Source: a virus (taxonomy: Duplodnaviria; Caudoviricetes). Taken from it: a stretch of DNA of 64,000 nucleotides. Position 1 is the stretch's first letter; the number at the start of each line of letters is the position of its first letter. Location: IMG/VR virus record IMGVR_UViG_3300027819_000006; one strand, 5' to 3'. This document shows positions 39,538 to 54,428 of this stretch, piece by piece. Below the pieces are notes generated by a model. That model had not been told where the DNA came from and made no database searches. It saw only the letters and a program-made list of their open reading frames with translations. The translations under genes and the position numbers were made by a program.

Positions 39538-39882
39538 TGGTGGACCTGGAGAATATCGAAATTCTCGTGTAGTCTATGCTACATAAAAATTGTATTGTAC
39601 ATGCTTTTGCAAATTCTAATTTTTCATTCTGTTATAAAGAATTAGCAAAGTTTATAACAGAATTATTCTTTCTATTTATTAAAAGAAGTGTTCTTATCAG
39701 ATATGAATGATGCTATTCTATTTCCTATCTGCAAAATTTAGATAGCATAGCTGTTTAGCTCTTAAGCAGCTAGTTTGTATTGATTTTTGTCAATTACTAT
39801 TTTGCTGTAAGTTTAAAGAGTTTATAGCAAACTCTGCATGCAATTCTTACTTTACATACCTATCGATTCCAATTTCAGGCCC
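39538..39882 (-). ncRNA. ssrA: tmRNA (complete, 345 nt), tag (A)DKNQYKLAA
   Basis: 5' GGGCCTG pairs with 3' CAGGTCC-ACCA including G3.U70; T-arm GAGAA-TTTCGAT-ATTCTC; tag ORF 39762-39791. Confidence 0.93.
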
Positions 39883-42953: not shown

Positions 42954-44945
42954 TTATGAAGTCACTTTTGGATTTGACCTACTCATGATAGAACTTACGA
43001 AATTCAAACTATCAGTTGCACAATTATCGCAATAACCATATTCACTAATTAATCTTCCTTTAACTATATCTATTTTAGCTTGAGTATCTGAATCTACTAC
43101 ACCCGTAACAAGCTGATTAAGTTTAATTGTGTCTTTCTGATCTTCAAACAATTTCAGTTCAAGAGCCATTTGCAATCTTGGATTAGACTTATAATCAAAT
43201 TTCTTTCCGTCTACAGCTAACCCTCCAATATAGTTCATGATTGCAAGTCTGAAATCTCCTTTTCTTTCATCTGGAATATCAATTTTTTCTTCAATTGCTC
43301 GCATCAATCTTTCATCTGGCTCTTCATCTTTACCAGTATATTTATTTTTAACCTTTTCTTTTGAAGTGAAAGCTTTAATATTGTCGATATAATTCTGACA
43401 AATTCTAGCTAAACCTTGATCATCTGCTGCAATAGCTCTCTGAACTTCTCTTTTTACAATGTATTCATACTCTTCTTTTACATCATTTAATAAAGCTCTA
43501 AATTTCTTTCTTGTTTCTGGAGATGAAGTAAGTGAATAAATATCTAAACCTTTGTCTAATTCATTCATTACCATGAATGGGTTAATACATTTGAATTCTG
43601 AATTAACAATTGCATTTGAAATCTTATCTTGAATATATCTTGGAGAAATCCCTTCCATACCTTCTCTAGATTCTGCTTGCATCATTTCTTTTACATGATC
43701 TTCTGTAAATCCAGGTAAAGTTTTACCATTATACAATTTCATTTTCTGTACAATTGATAATTTACCACCTTCAGGATCTCTCAGTCTTGTCAAAACTGAC
43801 CACATTGCTGCAACCTCTAAAGTATGTGGAGCAATATGAGGATCTTTCATATTTTTAAATCTTTTTTCATAAATTTTCATTTCAGAATCAAGAATCTTAA
43901 TATATGGAATATCTACTCGAACAGTTCTATCTCTTAAAGCTTCCATACTCTCGTTTTTTTGCAGGTTTACGAAATCGGAAGCATTACAATGTCCCAAAAT
44001 TACTTCATCAATATCAACATGACTAAATTTCTTGGGTTTTATCTTATGCTCTTGTGAAGCAGTTAATAGATCATAAAGGAATGCTACATCTAATTTGAGA
44101 ACTTCAATCATTTCAATCATACCTCTATTTGCTACACAAAATTCTCCATCAAAGTTGAATGCTCTTGGATCAGAATCTCTACCATATTCAGCAATTTTTC
44201 TATAATCAATGTCTCCAGTTAACTCTGTAGAGTCTTGATTCTTTTCATCTTTTGGTTGAAATGTAGCAATTCCTATTCTATCATCTTCTGAAAATACATA
44301 TTTGAATACTTTAATATGATTGTCATAAATTTTTTCCACATCTCCGCTATATTTAGTCATCAGTTCATTGAAATAAAATCTGCATAAAGGACATAGATTA
44401 CCTAAAGATTTTCCAAATCCAAAAGTTTCTCTATGCTCTAATGGAATTAGATGTAGAGGATCTTCGTGCATTGGACAGACTACTTCAGTCTTATTTTCAT
44501 CATCTAATATCCATTTGAATGAATATACAGCTCCATCATCTTTCTTGCTGTATTCTTGAAGTCCCTTCTTCATTAGTCTAGCAATAGTAGATTTAGATGA
44601 TCCTACTGGCCCATGTAATAGAAAAATTCTACTTTCTGTACCATAACTATTCGCAGCAGATTCAACTAGCTTTACAAGCTTCATTAAATGGGGATCTATT
44701 CCATATACTGCATCTAGACCATCTTCCATAGGATCATCAAAGAAATTATAATGAATTACTCTTTCTTTAAAATGAGTATATTCATTAGTCCCATGAGATA
44801 AAATCATGTCAAACATTCTCTGAAATGCATTTCTATATAACTTTGGATTTTCTTTACATAGATCTATATAATTATTGAAACTCCCCTCCCAGTGCTCCCT
44901 ATCATACTTTGTCTGTTCTAACGCTGAGATAGATTTAAAATCCAT
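42954..44945 (-). CDS. prkA: PrkA/YeaG AAA+ ATPase/kinase
   Basis: [39 protein letters not shown] and EGMEGISPR. Confidence 0.95.
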
Positions 44946-44970
44946 TTTGTTTCACTTTCTCCTATTTTTA

Positions 44971-45669
44971 TTATATGAACTGCTCTATGTAATTTCTATC
45001 TTCTGTGAATATTGGAATTTCATTATCTATTTTCCAATAACCTTCTATTTTAAAACAACACGCTCCTCTTTTAAAACTTGTTATTTCTTTTTCCCAACAA
45101 ACATCAACATCTTCTAATAGCATCTGTTTGACTTCTTTTGTGCTCTTGCTATCTAATTGTTTGTGAGAAAAGTGTTTCTGTCCTAAACAATTTATACTAT
45201 TTCTTTCACAGTCTTTCTGTCTCCAAATGAAATAATTGCAAACTTCTTCTTTGGGTAGAGAAAATACTCTGCAGTCAAAGAAAGCTGTTTGTAGTGGTAC
45301 TTTTAATTTAATAGGTTGCAAATATATATTTGCATAAGCTGTACATAATGAAGCTGCTACAGAAACTATCTTTTGAATATTACCACCAAACCACTGTTCA
45401 GTTTCAAATGTTTCATAGTCTGTCAACAATAAAGAAATTTCATCTGATTGAGTATAAGCTAATTTACAGTTCTGAACTTCACCACACAAATCTAATATTG
45501 TATATTTGAAAGCATTCATTAGATCTTCGTCATACGGCTTTTTCAGATGCTTTGTAAATGTATGGAAAGCCTTGCCATCCAATCTGATAATTGCTGGCAT
45601 TCTTGGAATTAGACGTTGTTCAGTGAAACATTTCTCAAATTTCTTCATGCGATCTGCGATATTTATCAT
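44971..45669 (-). CDS. thg1: tRNA(His) guanylyltransferase Thg1/TLP family (3'-5' polymerase)
   Basis: IIRLDGKAFHTFT, AYTQSDEISL, FDCRVF and YFIWRQKDCERNS. Confidence 0.93.
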   Translation of the reverse strand: MINIADRMKKFEKCFTEQRLIPRMPAIIRLDGKAFHTFTKHLKKPYDEDLMNAFKYTILDLCGEVQNCKLAYTQSDEISLLLTDYETFETEQWFGGNIQKIVSVAASLCTAYANIYLQPIKLKVPLQTAFFDCRVFSLPKEEVCNYFIWRQKDCERNSINCLGQKHFSHKQLDSKSTKEVKQMLLEDVDVCWEKEITSFKRGACCFKIEGYWKIDNEIPIFTEDRNYIEQFI

Positions 45670-45677
45670 AAAAACTC

Positions 45678-46403
45678 CTATGGATTGAATCTACTACCCC
45701 AATTATTATGGATTTCTTTATGACACTTCCTGCAAAGTATTAATCCATTCAATAAGTTTTCATCTTTTATTCTATCACAATTAGCTAAATAAGCAGCTTT
45801 ATCATCGTCACAATCGAAAACAATATTACATTTTGCTAATTCCTCTTTTATTAATATGACCATAGGAACTATATGATGAGCATCTAATTGTTCTTTGCTT
45901 CCGCATTTTGAACATTTATCATATGCAGCATACATTTTATTGTACCATTTAAATCTTCTACTGACTTCTATTTTAACTTTAACTGTTAGAGTGTGAAATC
46001 TACCACCTTTCCATGCAGTAGCATTTTTGCCGGTCTTGCCTGTTCTCGATATAGACATTTTATTCCTAGTAGCTATAGAATGTTTTTTATGATACATACT
46101 ATTTTTAGGACCAGATGTATCTCTAATTTTTATAGCATTTTGATATTTTTCTGAATTTCTTACAGCATTTCCATGTTCTTTCTTTTTTTCATCAGTCCAA
46201 AATGCTTTAGTTCTTTGAGGAGGATGATTTATGGGAACTATTTTTCTATAACATGGCTGGCATATATCTATATGAGATTGTCTATTTATTTTATTTCCAC
46301 ATTCACACATCATATTATTTCTACAGGGTCCACATATTTCGTATCCACATCTTATAGAATCTTCTTTTAATTCATTATTACAGCTGCGTATTTCACATTT
46401 CAT
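45678..46403 (-). mobile_element. NUMOD3 + HNH homing endonuclease
   Basis: True start MKCEIRSC after AAGGAG; KHSIATRNKMS, AWKGG, CSKCG..LDAHHI and NGLILCRKCH. Confidence 0.85.
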
Positions 46404-47703: not shown

Positions 47704-50700
47704 CTAAACAATCTTGAAACCATCTACAGAATATCTAGAAATTCTATTAACCTCTTCTTCTTCATGTTTCTCCATCTGATTCAAATAGAAAGCAAATCTC
47801 TCTTCTATATGCTCGTTCAAATCGTAAACTTTATCAGAATAAACTTTCAAATCTGCTGCTTTCTTCTTTGATTCTTCAAAATTCTCGACATGTTTAGATA
47901 TAGCATCTGTCCACACTTTAGGAGCTGTAACACTTACTGCCATGTTTTCAAATCTTAGTTTATCGGGAACAGTTTTCCAGAAGTCATGATAACCTCCATA
48001 ATTGCTGAATACTGGGACTGCTCCATAATACAAAGATTCTATCAGCTTTATCTCTGATTTGCACTCGCTAAATGTATTATGTTCTACATATGCCAAAGAT
48101 ATATCAAACAGAGTATAGAATTTAGCATATTCTTCTAGAGGCAGAGCATCAAAAATTTTTATTCTCTTTGGATCAATACCTGAATATAGTTTCTCTACTC
48201 TGTTTCTATAAGTCAAGCTCTTGTCTTGCAATTCCATTTCTCTGAATTTAGCCTGACCATTCTCGTCATATTGTATTTCTACTTGTGAATCTTTCAATGC
48301 CATACCAGCAAGCACAAATACAGTCTGTGGATATCTGTCATGTATGACTTTTAGAATGGAATACATTTTTCTCAGATCTTCAAAATGACTTGTAAGACCT
48401 GCCCAGCCAATAACAATTTTATTGTCAGTTGAAGGAAACCATTCTGGTAACATTTGCTGTCTAGTATCAGAAATATTTAAATTCCATTGTGGCAGTTGCC
48501 AGTCAAACATATTTCTGATTATATGCACATTCTTATTGAAATTTCCAAATGTTTTACATAGTTTCTCAGTAGTAGTTGTAATAGCATGACTCTTGCTTAG
48601 AGAGTGAATGCTCATTTGATCTTTTTTGCTTGCATCAATTATGTTGCGATGATATCGATTCCATATCATCTCTTATGGTCACCCATAAGTTCAGACTATT
48701 TCTTGTGCTATATTCAAAAGCACCTCTCTGTTTCAGCTTCTCTTGAAGCTTACATTATATAGTCGTTGCACTATCTGTGTTTCAAATATTCAGCTATTAT
48801 GCTGATTACTGCAATAAGAGATATTACAGATAAAGCATATATTAAAATATACTTTCCAAATAGCTCAGAGTTTTCTCAGTGAGATTTTCTCTGAATTAAG
48901 AGAGTTTTTATTATGTGAAGCAATTTAATACCACACATCACGCATCAATTATGTTATCTTAGAAGTTCTTTATCTTCTAATTCTGATAATTTTATTCTTA
49001 TCAGTTCGGACTATATCATCAGTATTGAAATACTGTCTCTTTTTCTTGGATATTTCTATCTAGTCTCTGAACCTTCTATTTTATCAATAGTTTAGCTGCT
49101 GATTAGCATTTCAGCTTTCCAGCAATTTAAGAGATTTTTCATTGAATTATTCAATGCCCCAATTTTTATTCAGGGTGCGTTCTTGGTAAGTTGAATTCAT
49201 TATCTATTTATTTGTTAACTGCAATTTCTTTTATTATAGTTGCAGATCGGACTATTTCATCTAGTTCTATGTCTAGTCTCTGAACCTTCTATTTATATAG
49301 CTTGGCTGCAGATTGTCTCTGTCTGAGATATCCCTGCAATTTATAGAATTTATTGTGGACAATATTTGAATTCTAAAAACTTAATCCACATCATGACAGA
49401 CCCAAGCAGATTTCTCTGTCTTCGGCCACATGTTTACTGCTGATAAAAAATGTGAATGTAAATTTCCACATCTGTGCATTATTATTCCATCTGCTAATTT
49501 GAGATGATTCGGTTGTCATTTATGTTGCGGAATTTATTCGCAATAAGCTGCTGAAAATAATATGCATGGTTTCTTAACTTTTATATTGATTTCTTCGAAG
49601 CTATAATCTCTAAAAGTATGAAAATTAAATTCATCTTCATTTCCAAAAGATCTTTTTAGTGTTGCTTTAGCCTCTTCTAAATCTTTTGCTGCTATAAAAA
49701 TTATACTAAGTGAATAACCTTTACATGCTTTTACTTTAAAATATTTCATAATAAATTCCTCTACAATTTTTTATATTGTTGTAGTTCGGACTATCACATG
49801 ATCTTATAATATACTAAGCTGCTACCATTCAATTTTACCAGATTTACGAACTAATTTGTTGCCATATAGAGTAACTACTAATACATCTTCTAATACTTTA
49901 TATGTTCTTTGTGCAGCGTTTGATTTAAATAATTTCTTAACAGAAGCTGCTTGTTTCTTAGTCATATATCTGTAATTCACCATAAGACCTCCAAGGTTTA
50001 GTCTCTTCTACTGCATTTTCATGCTTGTAGTTTGTTAGCTTTAATTATGTTTCTAATTTGTTTTTTGTCTAATTTATCAGAAGATATTACGCATCCAAAA
50101 TCGCTAGTATTTTTAGTGTCAGGATGTTGATAAATGTGTAATCCAAATTTGTATTTTAAAACATGTTCTAATATCTCTATGTAGCTCATTGGACCTCCTG
50201 CAATTATTTCTTGATTCATAGTCAAAGCCTTTCAATTTAATTACTTAAGATTCTCATTTCTATATTGCTATAGAATGATCCACATTGTCTAGATTTTCAG
50301 TATAAACTAAATTTATCTCATCTCTAAAATTCTTCCACAGTACTCTCATCGGTTCAAAGATTCTGAAATATGCTTTCATGTTAGCTACAATTTTTGATAT
50401 AGTTGTAGTTCGGACTATCATATGATCTTTATGCTTTACCAAGTCTCAGGATCATTTCTATAAAAGTGTACAAATGCTAAAAATATTATAATACATCCTA
50501 GTGGTAAAATTAAACATTTTAGATCTCCAATCGTTTAGTCTCTCAAGCTGCAAAATTGTTTATAAAGCTTCCTGTCTTGATTAAAATATACTTTTTCTAT
50601 TGAAAGCTCTACTAAATTATAAATATATGCACACTTTCTATTATCTTTGGGACATCCTGGATCTTCTGCTTCTAAATATATAAGAGGAGAATATTTATCT

Positions 50701-51309
50701 CTATATATTTTAGCAATTTTATAATCCCAACTTTTGAGCTGTCTTACCTGAACTTCAACCCAAAAAGGCATGTACCTATAGTTCATCATGTTTTGCTTGC
50801 TCCTTGTTGTCTGATTTCTATGATCAGATATTCAAGTGATTAGATTAGATTCTCATTCTATATTATTAGAATGACACCATTTAAAATGTTCCAGTTTCTG
50901 CTTTATGTTAATCTCTAATTTTTTGTATAGTTAGAGTTCGGACTATCATATGATCTTTACAGATTATTAAAATCAAAACCTTCTCCTTTATAATTCTCTG
51001 TACAATATGTCGCAACGAATATTAAAAGAAAAATTATTATTCCGCCCATAAAAATCTCCAATCGTTTAGTCTCTCAAGCTGTATTTAAACTTGTTCCTTG
51101 TTGTCTGAATTTTATTCAGATATTCAAGTGATTAGATTAGATTTTCATTCTATTGCTTATAGAATGCCGCCAGAATTTAACGGAGTGCTAAAAACGATAC
51201 AGCGCTTAGATCGATCGATGCTAGATGGATTAGTGAACATTTGTTTCAACTTGTTTCTTTCTTCAGCATTTTTATAGTTCAAATGCTCTTCTACATTTTC
51301 TTCTGTAAT
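47704..51309 (-). CDS. GT-B glycosyltransferase (GT4-like), 446 aa after splicing out six group I introns
   Basis: Exons 51309-51180, 50900-50886, 50372-50291, 49516-49384, 49204-49172, 48945-48930 and 48635-47704 join to 1341 nt in frame: RCIVFSTPSETGTSYFRIFEP...HDVDDNEFNLPRTHPMRDVWYASKK...VIGWAGLTSHFEDL...FSECKSEIKLIE. AUU start after AAGGAG. Confidence 0.88.
48636..48929 (-). mobile_element. Group I intron F (294 nt)
   Basis: AATTCAGAGAAA, AACTCTGAGC, GTGCAACGACTA and GAAATAGTCTG; P9 hairpins; end GCAACATAATTG. Confidence 0.87.
48946..49171 (-). mobile_element. Group I intron E (226 nt)
   Basis: AATTGCTGGAAA, AATCAGCAG, GTTCAGAGACTA and GATATAGTCCG; end AACATAATTG. Confidence 0.9.
49205..49383 (-). 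mobile_element. Group I intron D (179 nt, non-canonical 3' junction)
   Basis: P1 GUGGAU/GUCCAC, AATTGCAGGGA, AATCTGCAG, GTTCAGAGACTA and GAAATAGTCCG. Confidence 0.85.
49534..49749 (-). CDS. 71-aa hypothetical ORF in the P9 region of intron C
   Basis: GAGG RBS overlapping the P9 stem; MKYFKVKACKGYS. Confidence 0.65.
   Translation of the reverse strand: MKYFKVKACKGYSLSIIFIAAKDLEEAKATLKRSFGNEDEFNFHTFRDYSFEEINIKVKKPCILFSAAYCE
49822..49983 (-). CDS. 53-aa hypothetical ORF in the P8 loop of intron C
   Basis: GGAGG RBS; MVNYRYMTKKQAASVKK...GKIEW*. Confidence 0.65.
   Translation of the reverse strand: MVNYRYMTKKQAASVKKLFKSNAAQRTYKVLEDVLVVTLYGNKLVRKSGKIEW
50019..50189 (-). CDS. 56-aa hypothetical ORF in intron C (upstream of R)
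   Basis: GGAGG RBS before MSYIEILEH. Confidence 0.6.
   Translation of the reverse strand: MSYIEILEHVLKYKFGLHIYQHPDTKNTSDFGCVISSDKLDKKQIRNIIKANKLQA
50373..50885 (-). mobile_element. Group I intron B (513 nt)
   Basis: P1 ACAU/GUGU; core nearly identical to intron A; terminal G before CATATTTC. Confidence 0.88.
50535..50789 (-). CDS. 84-aa hypothetical ORF inside intron B
   Basis: AAGGAG RBS; its stop codon lies within the R element; no endonuclease motif. Confidence 0.7.
   Translation of the reverse strand: MMNYRYMPFWVEVQVRQLKSWDYKIAKIYRDKYSPLIYLEAEDPGCPKDNRKCAYIYNLVELSIEKVYFNQDRKLYKQFCSLRD
50901..51179 (-). mobile_element. Group I intron A (279 nt)
   Basis: P1 CCGU/GCGG, P10 UUCUG/CAGAA, R CTTGAGAGACTA, S ATGATAGTCCG, terminal G. 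Confidence 0.88.
50957..51049 (-). CDS. 30-aa hydrophobic peptide in the P8 loop of intron A
   Basis: GGAG RBS; MGGIIIFLLIFVATYCTENYKGEGFDFNNL*. Confidence 0.5.
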   Translation of the reverse strand: MGGIIIFLLIFVATYCTENYKGEGFDFNNL

Positions 51310-52333: not shown

Positions 52334-53556
52334 CTAAATAGTGTTCACAATTGCTTTATAGTAGTTGTTTGTATCCTTTCTGATAAAAATTTTGTATTTG
52401 TCTCTATAATTATATATTGTCTCATCTTGATCTGATACTCTTCTAGCTTTACCTTGAAACACATGAACATTAATTTTTTCCAAAGCAAATAGAGCTGATT
52501 GATAACTCATAGGTCCAGACTGCACTTCTTTGTCATTGACTTTAAAAAGTGTAAGTTTTGCATCTCCTCTCATCAGTTTGAGAAGAATTAGATCTGTGAT
52601 TGCTTCAGATAAGTTCAATCTATTTCTTCTCTAATTCATATACAGAAGTTATGCAATAAGCAACAGTTCTATTTGTTTGCTGTCCCATTGCTCTAAAATC
52701 TGTGTCTACATGTTTTACACTGTATCCAGAATGTCCTTTTTCTCTCAGTACTCTTGGAATATCTTTTGCAATTTCATCCATCTCATCTTGCATGCTCTTC
52801 TGAGTATCTGTATAGTTTGCCGGAGCATACCTCTGAGTCTTTAAAAGCATTTTAGATCCTTCAAACTTCACATTTACTTCTGGGATCTTTGCTACATAGT
52901 TTCCGACAGTTTCTATAGCATCTCTGACACTAGTATCTTTGACTCTGTTTGGAGACTTGTCATATACATCTCCTACAGCTTTTCTGACATCTTTTTTGAT
53001 ATTGTAGTCATCTTTTGGTATGAAATCTGCTGCTTTTTTTGCTGGCATTTCTATTTAAGCTCCATGTGTGAATCTGTTTCTTTTAAATATTCTTCTACTT
53101 CAAAATAGTGAGGATTAAACTTTTTAAAACAATCTCTGCACATACCTAATATTGCGTAATATTCAGAGTCATCTGCATCCATCAGTTTATTGCATCTTAT
53201 ATTGGTATCAGGATCTAGACATGTGCAATACCATTGCCTGATATCTGAATCTTCACTTTTTCTTTCAATTAGTTTGTAACCTGATTTTTGTGTTACAGTT
53301 TTCATTTATCTGATTTTTCTAATGGGAAGAATTTGCCTTCGTCTAAGTGGTTTTTTCTAGTACATTCTTCACAAGCTCCAAACTGACTAAAAAATTGTGC
53401 TGACCATCCCGTCAGTAGATTACCACATTTTTTACCATGTTCATCGACTCTGTCGCAAAAAACTGGAGAAATAGGTTTGTGATTTTCTTTTATAGTGCTC
53501 ATGTTGCTGTGCCATTTTTTTGTTTTATTTATTGGCAATCCTTGAAAGTTTTCCAT
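52334..53556 (-). other. Hypothetical ORFs (52334-52618, 52620-53048) and two paralogous zinc-binding ORFs (53051-53305, 53302-53556)
   Basis: CNKLM...YAILGMCRDC and CGNLL...FSQFGACEEC. Confidence 0.65.
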
Positions 53557-54428
53557 TTGCTATCCTTTTTTAAATCTTCATAGAACAATATATAATATAT
53601 GTTTTCTAAATTATATTTTTCTAGAAAGTTTTTTATTTTAATTTTATTACACTCTGTTAAATATCCTTTGACTTCTTCTATTCTTATCAAATTATCATTC
53701 TCATCATAAATAAAGAAATCAGGAGTATATGTAGTTCCTTCTAATCTATATGTTATTTCTTCATACTTCCAGTTTGCAGATATAGAATCTAAAAATTGAG
53801 CCCTCTCTAATTCATAAGAAGATTTCAAATAATAATCTCTATATTCACTTTTTATATATCGATTTTTTATATTTGGGCTAACTTTTCTGCTCTGAACTAT
53901 CTTAACATTTCTATCGAACCACATCTCTTCAGCTTTTTCAACACCATATTCAGCTATCCACATATCTTTTACTGATACACCAAACATCCCATTCATAGAG
54001 CCAGTTAAACTCCAAGTTCCATTTTTCTTTTTACTTTCTTCTGATTTTGTAGTAATTTTTATCATAGTTTCTTTAGAATGGCGATGTCCAGTCATAGGAG
54101 GTATCTGTTGCAAACGTTTATCACGTCTTTCTTTTGAATCATAGACATGTTTTTTACAATATCCGTATTTATTCGGATTAATCCTTTTATTACAGCCTTC
54201 ATGTTTGCATATTACTTTTCTGTCATCAAAATATTTTCGCTTTCCATAGTTTGGACCATGGTGTCCTATACAAATGTAACATCTCAAAACTTTATTACTA
54301 ACGATATTATTCAGACATTGATTGCAATATTTATCTATATTGCTACAATATAAGCAGAAACTATATTCTTCAAATTGCATAGAGCGTTTATTACATTTGC
54401 TACATTCTCTGATAATTTCTTGTATCAT
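53529..54428 (-). mobile_element. Zn-finger/NUMOD3 + PD-(D/E)XK (TnsA-like) homing-type endonuclease
   Basis: HSKETMIKI; LKSSYELE...WKYEE...YTPDFFI...IEEVKGY. Confidence 0.75.

Follow-up and report, generated by a model that had tools for sequence, protein, structure and literature searches.

Small open reading frames in the loops of three related group I introns of a phage glycosyltransferase gene

Phage group I introns are usually described as carriers of homing endonuclease genes or as empty. We analysed a stretch of 64,000 nucleotides (nt), here called the window, from IMG/VR virus record IMGVR_UViG_3300027819_000006 (Duplodnaviria; Caudoviricetes), in which a glycosyltransferase (GT) gene is split by three related introns, A, B and C, whose peripheral loops hold five small open reading frames (ORFs) that are not recognisable as nucleases. 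The window is part of a 271,887-bp contig detected only in groundwater and sediment DNA runs. A first-pass annotation, made by a model from the letters alone, had described these introns as neutral landing pads or vectors for accessory genes. We examine here the anatomy of the introns, the coding status and relatives of their ORFs, and the explanations that these allow.

Three introns in a glycosyltransferase gene

In the part of the window around introns A to C all genes lie on the minus strand. The ORF at 47704-48669 (321 amino acids, aa) belongs to the phage glycosyltransferase family phrog_7162 (E 1e-14, PHROGs) and has more than 100 homologs; because most of these are 441-448 aa long, some 125 N-terminal residues should be encoded upstream. 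Exon and intron borders were placed by tblastn with four uninterrupted homologs of 443-444 aa (P0004, P0020, P0022, P0074) and by direct reading, which gives the following order, in the direction of transcription:

51180..51309, minus strand: glycosyltransferase exon 1 (tblastn of P0004, P0020, P0022, P0074)
50901..51179, minus strand: group I intron A, 279 nt (P1, P10, helices P2-P8 fully paired, terminal G)
50886..50900, minus strand: micro-exon 2, 15 nt, encoding part of SETGT (tblastn and direct reading)
50373..50885, minus strand: group I intron B, 513 nt (core 79-88% identical to that of A)
50291..50372, minus strand: exon 3, 82 nt (tblastn)
49517..50290, minus strand: group I intron C, 774 nt (A/B subfamily; P3 covaries with A and B)
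49384..49516, minus strand: exon 4 (tblastn)

Exon 4 is followed downstream by a 33-nt exon and the last GT exon. With A, B and C removed, the product reads FSTP-SETGT-SYFRIF and TENL-QPNH, matching the homologs residue for residue at the junctions. Three related introns thus split the GT gene, and the range 49517-51179 is exactly that from intron A to intron C. The GT start codon is likely an ATT at 51309, 7 nt after AAGGAG, which aligns with the ATG start of the homolog on L013, a 10-kb groundwater contig; exon 1 is overlooked by ORF callers or begun at an internal TTG.

The three introns share the signatures of one group I subfamily. The last base of every 5′ exon is a U that pairs with G in P1, and the introns all have a terminal G. 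In intron A, P1 is CCGU/GCGG with the U.G pair and P10 is CAGAA/UUCUG; P1 is ACAU/GUGU in B and AUCU/GGAU in C, where P10 is weaker in both cases (3 bp). P2 in introns of this type is CAUUCUA/UAGAAUG, and P7 is GACUA/UAGUC, formed by distant strands. Checked by script, helices P2-P9, including P3, P4, P5, P6, P8 and P9, pair fully in nearly all cases. P3 covaries between A and B (UCUAAUC/GAUUGGA) and C (UAAG/CUUG), the J8/7-P7' stretch AUGAUAGUCCGAAC resembles that of the Rfam-positive introns D and E, and all three introns end in the common 3′ tail AACAU(A/G)AA(A/U)G. Core identity is 79-88% between A and B and 65-89% between B and C, and a shared 20-mer occurs three times in the window where 0.01 occurrences are expected. 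The exact junctions against homologs, the paired core helices and these shared motifs bear out the first-pass assignment of A, B and C to a related group I subfamily.

The Rfam covariance model RF00028 recognises these introns poorly. It gave a partial hit to the 5′ half of intron A (16.7 bits, E 0.047; the Rfam gathering cut-off is 50 bits) and no hit to B or C, in which loop inserts of 90-250 nt break the model. The three downstream introns of the same gene score 58.6, 51.4 and 38.5 bits, the ORF-poor introns D and E accounting for 51 and 59. Given the junctions and the pairing, A, B and C are very probably functional group I introns. Exact-motif scans for the A/B/C core returned no hits or chance hits only in IMG/VR and none in JGI metagenomes, and yielded no further intron; contigs from four other runs contained identical fragments only, and no intron-less or variant GT allele was found among them.

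Small open reading frames and their ribosome-binding sites

The loops of A, B and C contain five ORFs equipped with Shine-Dalgarno (SD) sequences, and the remains of a sixth, at the positions that the first-pass annotation had described:

50957..51049, minus strand: A30, a 30-aa hydrophobic ORF filling the P8 loop of A (ORF, SD, codon usage)
50535..50789, minus strand: B84, an 84-aa ORF in L6 of B (similar to a 68-aa ORF of L013)
50436..50513, minus strand: decayed hydrophobic ORF in P8 of B, LILPLGCIIIFLAFVHFYRNDPETW (frame reading, comparison of A and B)
50019..50189, minus strand: C56, a 56-aa ORF in L6 of C (homolog P0125)
49822..49983, minus strand: C53, a 53-aa ORF filling P8 of C, beginning MVNYRYM (SD GGAGG made of P3' and P8)
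49534..49749, minus strand: C71, a 71-aa ORF in the P9.1 loop of C (homolog in L013, 2708-2932)

The ORFs are fitted closely into the ribozyme fold. For A30, three bases at the end of P3' and one at the beginning of P8 make up the SD, GGAG, and the stop codon shares bases with the 3′ strand of P8. B84 starts 6 nt into L6 behind an AGGAG in P4'/J4-6, and its final five codons (SLRD and stop) run through the P6' strand, J6/7 and the 5′ strand of P7. The three ORFs of intron C are each in a loop of their own and have independent SDs and starts. C71 follows P9 and precedes the conserved 3′ tail; the loop that holds it, which we call P9.1, is closed by GGAAUU/AAUUCC, and the SD of the ORF overlaps P9 and P9.1. 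The claim that the ribosome-binding sites are built into the intron stems holds for four of the five ORFs, whose SD sites lie in or against helices (P3'/P8, P4'/J4-6 or P9/P9.1), and fails for C56, whose AGGAGG follows directly after the 5′ strand of P6 and is unpaired, just within L6. A frameshifted hydrophobic ORF is present in P8 of B as had been proposed: the SD and AUG are kept, but the AUG opens a 19-codon frame with non-coding codon usage, and the hydrophobic frame LILPLGCIIIFLAFVHFYRNDPETW is off by one base from it.

Several measures set these ORFs apart from fortuitous reading frames. With a codon log-likelihood model trained on 14,274 codons from the long ORFs of the window, the annotated frame gives the best score for all five, 0.23-0.44 bits per codon, as compared with 0.38±0.15 for chunks of real genes and -0.18±0.21 for spurious ORFs inside genes. 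An SD core (GGAG, GAGG or AGGA) stands 4-10 nt upstream of every one of them (5/5), a feature of 55% of the long ORFs and of 7.7% of all ATGs. The loop inserts are coextensive with the ORFs; among 5000 shuffles, 15 reached the longest ORF of B and none the total ORF content of C. The P8 interiors of A and B are 52% identical, between flanking cores that are 85-88% identical, and the peptides of A30 and of the decayed frame nevertheless keep GxIIIFLxFVxxY, with five identical residues that use different codons (shuffle p ~0.01).

Relatives of the loop genes and turnover of loop content

An exhaustive phmmer search of 1.8e9 representative proteins identified a homolog of C56, the 64-aa protein P0125 (49% identity, E 6e-4). 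It is encoded on L012 as a free-standing gene with no intron signal, one of several small overlapping genes that follow an RpiB-like gene; judging from this protein, the C56 family also exists outside introns. A second candidate relative of C56, the 188-aa repeat-like protein P0124, was rejected as spurious.

The most informative relative is L013, whose last GT exon is 56% identical to that of the window. Its GT gene contains an intron at the D site (2292-2985), between CHDV and DDNEF, with a D-type core (AUAGUCCGAUCUUUAUGG) and not one of the A/B/C type. P8 of this intron, closed by UUUGAAUUA/UAAUUCAAA, holds a 74-aa ORF (2708-2932) homologous to C71 over the full length (tblastn, 39% identity, E 1e-11; 41% in a MAFFT alignment), and L6 holds a 68-aa ORF that starts MVNYRYLPSFV, to be compared with MMNYRYMPFWV in B84 and MVNYRYMT in C53. 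The nearly identical beginnings of the two ORFs of the window, MMNYRYM and MVNYRYM, had been noted in the first-pass annotation and are as stated. ORFs of the NYRY type and of the C71 type therefore co-occur in intron C of the window and in the D-site intron of L013, whose cores, insertion sites and loops all differ. Over the first eight codons of B84, C53 and the 68-aa ORF synonymous sites are saturated while pN is 0.10-0.15, and selection on the shared NYRY N-terminus thus acts on the peptide, not on the RNA.

A comparison of loop content across related phages, which the earlier annotation had called for, reveals differences among L001, L005, L013 and the window. In L001-L004, whose GT is 62% identical to that of the window, the A, B and D sites lack introns. 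L001-L004 do carry a 288-nt, ORF-less relative of intron C (4545-4832 in L001) with a core 61-65% identical, and where intron C has CAGGAG, its ORF and AAAU, the short L6 of this relative reads CAGGAG...AAAU, the SD-like CAGGAG being retained. The D-site introns of L005-L007 and of L013 are orthologous, with the same site and identities of 73% in the 5′ core and 81% in the 3′ core. Their cargo differs: L005 has a 59-aa CxxC...CxxC ORF where L013 has NYRY-type and C71-type ORFs, and intron D of the window (49205-49383, 179 nt) is ORF-less. From these differences in content we infer that small ORFs are gained, lost and exchanged in the loops. The marine GT homologs L017-L019 and the loci L014-L016 contained no homologs of the cargo ORFs.

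Some details of these relatives deserve mention. In L001 the relative of intron C sits 6 nt further downstream than the C site, after QP and not before it, and its P7, GACUG/CAGUC, shows a compensatory change with respect to GACUA/UAGUC. The 59-aa ORF (L005 378-557; also in L006 and L007) has two CxxC pairs, which are zinc-ribbon-like, and an acidic tail; its AUG overlaps the 5′ strand of P7 and its SD, GGAGG, lies in the 3′ strand of P6. For the D introns of L013 and the window, a U-ending 5′ exon combined with a terminal G is incompatible with the conserved HDVDDNEF frame, and the single junction G can be assigned to either side, so that the intron ends in A or the exon in G; the L005 D-site intron shows the canonical U and G there. 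A further intron of L013 (1837-2062, Rfam 75.7 bits), without an ORF, is inserted exactly at the A site. Over its first 13 nt (UAAUUUCUGGCGG, the guide region) it is almost the same as intron A of the window (51179-51167), but the remaining core is of another type, which suggests that the ribozyme body was replaced behind a conserved guide.

Might the ORFs have arisen by chance in non-coding peripheral extensions of the RNA? The genome is AT-rich, A30 is no longer than chance would provide, and the ORFs are mostly orphans. Codon usage, SD sites, shuffles and conservation of protein across phages speak against such an origin, and protein-level conservation in the face of synonymous divergence contradicts it for C71 (41%), C56 (49%) and the NYRY N-terminus; outside that N-terminus B84 and C53 show conservation of this kind only weakly, as does A30 when compared with the P8 frame of B. 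A chance origin of the set is therefore very improbable, and conceivable for A30 alone. In our estimation C71 is very likely a real gene, with C56 close behind; B84 is likely to be one, C53 is a probable but slightly weaker case, and for A30 the balance is even. Taken together, the sequence comparisons indicate that the small ORFs are very probably real genes that move between intron loops.

A second possibility is that the ORFs are degenerate remnants of homing endonuclease genes. L6, P8 and P9.1 are classical sites for such genes, the P8 ORF of B is visibly decaying, and larger nuclease-like ORFs are found in the E/F-site intron of relatives (212 aa in L001, with a homolog in L016). Set against these points, the ORFs of intron C lie in separate loops with their own SDs and starts, neither nucleases nor the local nuclease-like ORFs show similarity to them at E≤0.05-1, and the known homologs are complete proteins of comparable length (64 aa and 74 aa). 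The possibility that they are pieces of one endonuclease, which the earlier annotation had named as fatal to its proposal, is thus opposed by the data, and decay from endonuclease genes in general seems highly unlikely.

Nor do the ORFs carry any recognisable endonuclease signature, in agreement with the first-pass annotation. None has a LAGLIDADG, GIY-YIG, HNH, His-Cys box, PD-(D/E)XK or EDxHD domain or motif, no nuclease family was hit at E≤1 in Pfam, PHROGs, NCBIfam or PADLOC, and comparison with the nuclease-like ORFs of the window and with the 212-aa intron ORF of L001 disclosed no similarity. A new kind of nuclease is conceivable, but no observation points to it. Two free-standing nuclease-like ORFs, which the earlier annotation had put forward as endonucleases that may mobilise the introns in trans, are located nearby, at 45678-46403 (weak HNH_2 match, 18 bits, below the cut-off) and 53529-54428 (DUF1064). 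The 212-aa ORF of L001 (5013-5651) lies in the intron before the last GT exon and has a 36%-identical homolog in L016 (3516-4463); it has no Pfam hit, and its C-terminal ...YVEYNGNFWHG resembles by eye Vsr/DUF559-type nucleases. Structure prediction had also been recommended at the outset. Single-sequence AF2 models are weak (pLDDT 54 for B84 and 67.5 for C71), and the ESM Atlas model of B84 has a pLDDT of 0.74; the models suggest small beta or alpha/beta folds for B84 and C71.

Cargo, mobility module or translated leader

We think it probable, on the strength of these comparisons, that the intron loops are slots for small genes that ride with the introns. According to this proposal, A, B and C would be self-splicing group I introns of one subfamily, splicing would restore the glycosyltransferase mRNA, and the terminal loops L6, P8 and P9.1 would be filled by intact small protein-coding genes. 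Loops of these types are the classical sites of homing endonuclease genes, as in the T4 introns. At least three families may be represented, 'NYRY' (B84 and C53), C71 and C56, together with a hydrophobic mini-peptide that is intact in A and decayed in B. The small genes would behave as exchangeable loop cassettes, since the same families are found in other loops of a non-orthologous intron, one family is also free-standing, and orthologous introns vary in content. Residence in an intron may let a gene occupy an essential-looking gene cost-free and be co-inherited or co-converted with the intron. The proteins are presumably dispensable for splicing, because ORF-less relatives of these introns exist. 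Translation would most likely compete with folding and take place on nascent or unfolded precursor RNA, as for I-TevI (PMC3073962). Expression from excised stable intron RNA, which the first-pass annotation had considered, is unlikely, since the folded ribozyme would occlude the SD sites in or against helices, four of the five; the C56 SD is the unpaired exception.

Several observations weigh against cassettes of this kind. The NYRY and C71 families have so far been seen in introns only, which bears on whether they are cargo or serve the intron. Beyond a small phage clade B84, C53 and A30 have no significant homolog, and past the N-terminus B84 and the 68-aa ORF of L013 are only weakly similar (27% identity, E 0.038). 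The length of A30 is within chance (799 of 5000 shuffles), and full-length dN/dS was rejected as evidence, as synonymous sites are saturated (pS 0.46-0.85) and the genome is AT-rich. Confidence in the structure models is low to moderate, and no fold was assigned: Foldseek found nothing at E≤0.001 in BFVD and PDB, and ESM Atlas neighbours were below 0.9. Finally, the phage is present in DNA runs only, with identical sequence throughout. Other searches found no further relatives: a word-indexed search of 5.8e9 proteins with B84 and C71 recovered only the queries themselves, tblastn against 50,697 phage genomes gave nothing significant, and searches for relatives in IMG/VR (with C56 plus P0125, B84, C71, C53 and two family alignments) and in JGI metagenomes (with C56 plus P0125) found none.

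The intron-only occurrence of two families makes it necessary to consider, as the main alternative, that the small proteins serve the intron, as a new mobility or maintenance module (a minimal or two-part nuclease, or a nuclease adaptor), a splicing cofactor or an RNA chaperone. ORFs of the NYRY type are known from three intron contexts and those of the C71 type from two, and the two types travel together in intron C and the L013 D-site intron despite the differences in core, site and loop. Hopping between the loops of unrelated introns is the behaviour of homing endonuclease genes, and free-standing nuclease-like genes are close by. On the other side, the proteins have no catalytic motifs and no hits to nuclease or maturase families, with 53-84 aa they fall below the size of every known homing enzyme, the ORF-less relatives (L001, intron D of the window and the A-site intron of L013) indicate that they are not needed for splicing, and the C56 family is also free-standing. 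On this evidence a role in the service of the intron is possible but unlikely. More doubtful still is the specific version in which the NYRY-type and C71-type proteins constitute a new intron-borne mobility or maintenance module that moves itself between the loops of different group I introns; such a module might be a nuclease, very small or in two parts, or else an adaptor serving the free-standing nucleases of the phage, and if real it would explain why both families occur only in introns. The description of these introns as landing pads or vectors fits the finding that the same families occupy different loops of non-orthologous introns; neutrality itself is in doubt, as the two intron-only families could serve the intron.

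It is also conceivable that the act of translation matters and not its products, with ribosomes entering P3/P8, L6 or P9.1 to tune the splicing of the GT mRNA in the manner of a leader peptide. Core helices incorporate most of the SD sites and the ends of some ORFs, and occupancy of the intron core by ribosomes is known to impair td splicing (PMC3073962). If only translating mattered, conservation of the protein sequences across phages at saturated synonymous divergence would be unexpected, and we consider this explanation quite improbable.

The reading of the loops as slots for small genes finds partial parallels in known systems. Core creep, sequestration of ribosome-binding sites, IStrons, collaborative homing and the capacity of group I introns to harbour ORFs unrelated to mobility, with organellar examples, have been reviewed (PMC3073962, PMC3984707). 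The td, nrdB and nrdD (sunY) introns of T4, with I-TevI, I-TevII and I-TevIII, likewise interrupt phage protein genes and have an ORF looped from P6 or P9.1; the 3′ end of the ORF contributes to P6/P7 ('core creep'), as in B84, and the ribosome-binding site is sequestered in RNA structure (PMC3073962). In contrast to the T4 introns, the ORFs described here are only 30-84 aa long and have no GIY-YIG or HNH signature, up to three of them share an intron, and members of one family occur in more than one kind of loop. The organellar ND5 intron of Discosoma, with genes in P8 (PMC3073962), is another group I loop that harbours non-endonuclease genes; those are essential organellar genes trapped in one intron, whereas ours are small orphan phage genes that vary and recur. 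Large phages with many compact introns, a multiply split gene and free-standing nuclease-like genes are known from the ORF-less introns of collaborative homing (PMC3984707) and from the intron-rich huge Jug phages, with compact introns and free-standing nucleases (PMC12880540), but the introns there are ORF-less or carry endonucleases, and small non-nuclease loop ORFs are unreported. IStrons, which combine a group I intron with an IS605-type element, also have a foreign gene module in a loop; their cargo is a transposase/TnpB mobility module, and A-C contain nothing similar. Our literature search found no description of phage group I introns with several small non-nuclease genes, or of such genes recurring across loops.

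One gene with three related introns and five small genes not recognisable as nucleases, in loops whose contents turn over among relatives, suggests that intron loops commonly shelter small phage genes and let them be exchanged, or alternatively that introns encode a class of proteins so far unrecognised. In both cases the annotation of intron-rich huge-phage genomes would change, since ORFs of this sort and the host genes that the introns split are at present called wrongly, and the locus would offer a concrete system for how translation and ribozyme folding share one RNA.

The GT locus adjoins genes for a PrkA-type kinase (663 aa) and a Thg1-like tRNA-His guanylyltransferase (232 aa), at 42954-45669 of the window. 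In L013, DUF444 and SpoVR genes come after PrkA, and upstream of the GT gene lies one for a full CCA-adding enzyme. The window also contains a tmRNA (Rfam RF00023) at 39538-39882 on the minus strand, which scores 56.7 bits; its counterparts in relatives (L001 10348-10708, L003 5958-6318 and L005 3037-3386) score up to 123 bits and lie a few kb from the GT gene, an arrangement conserved in the phage clade.

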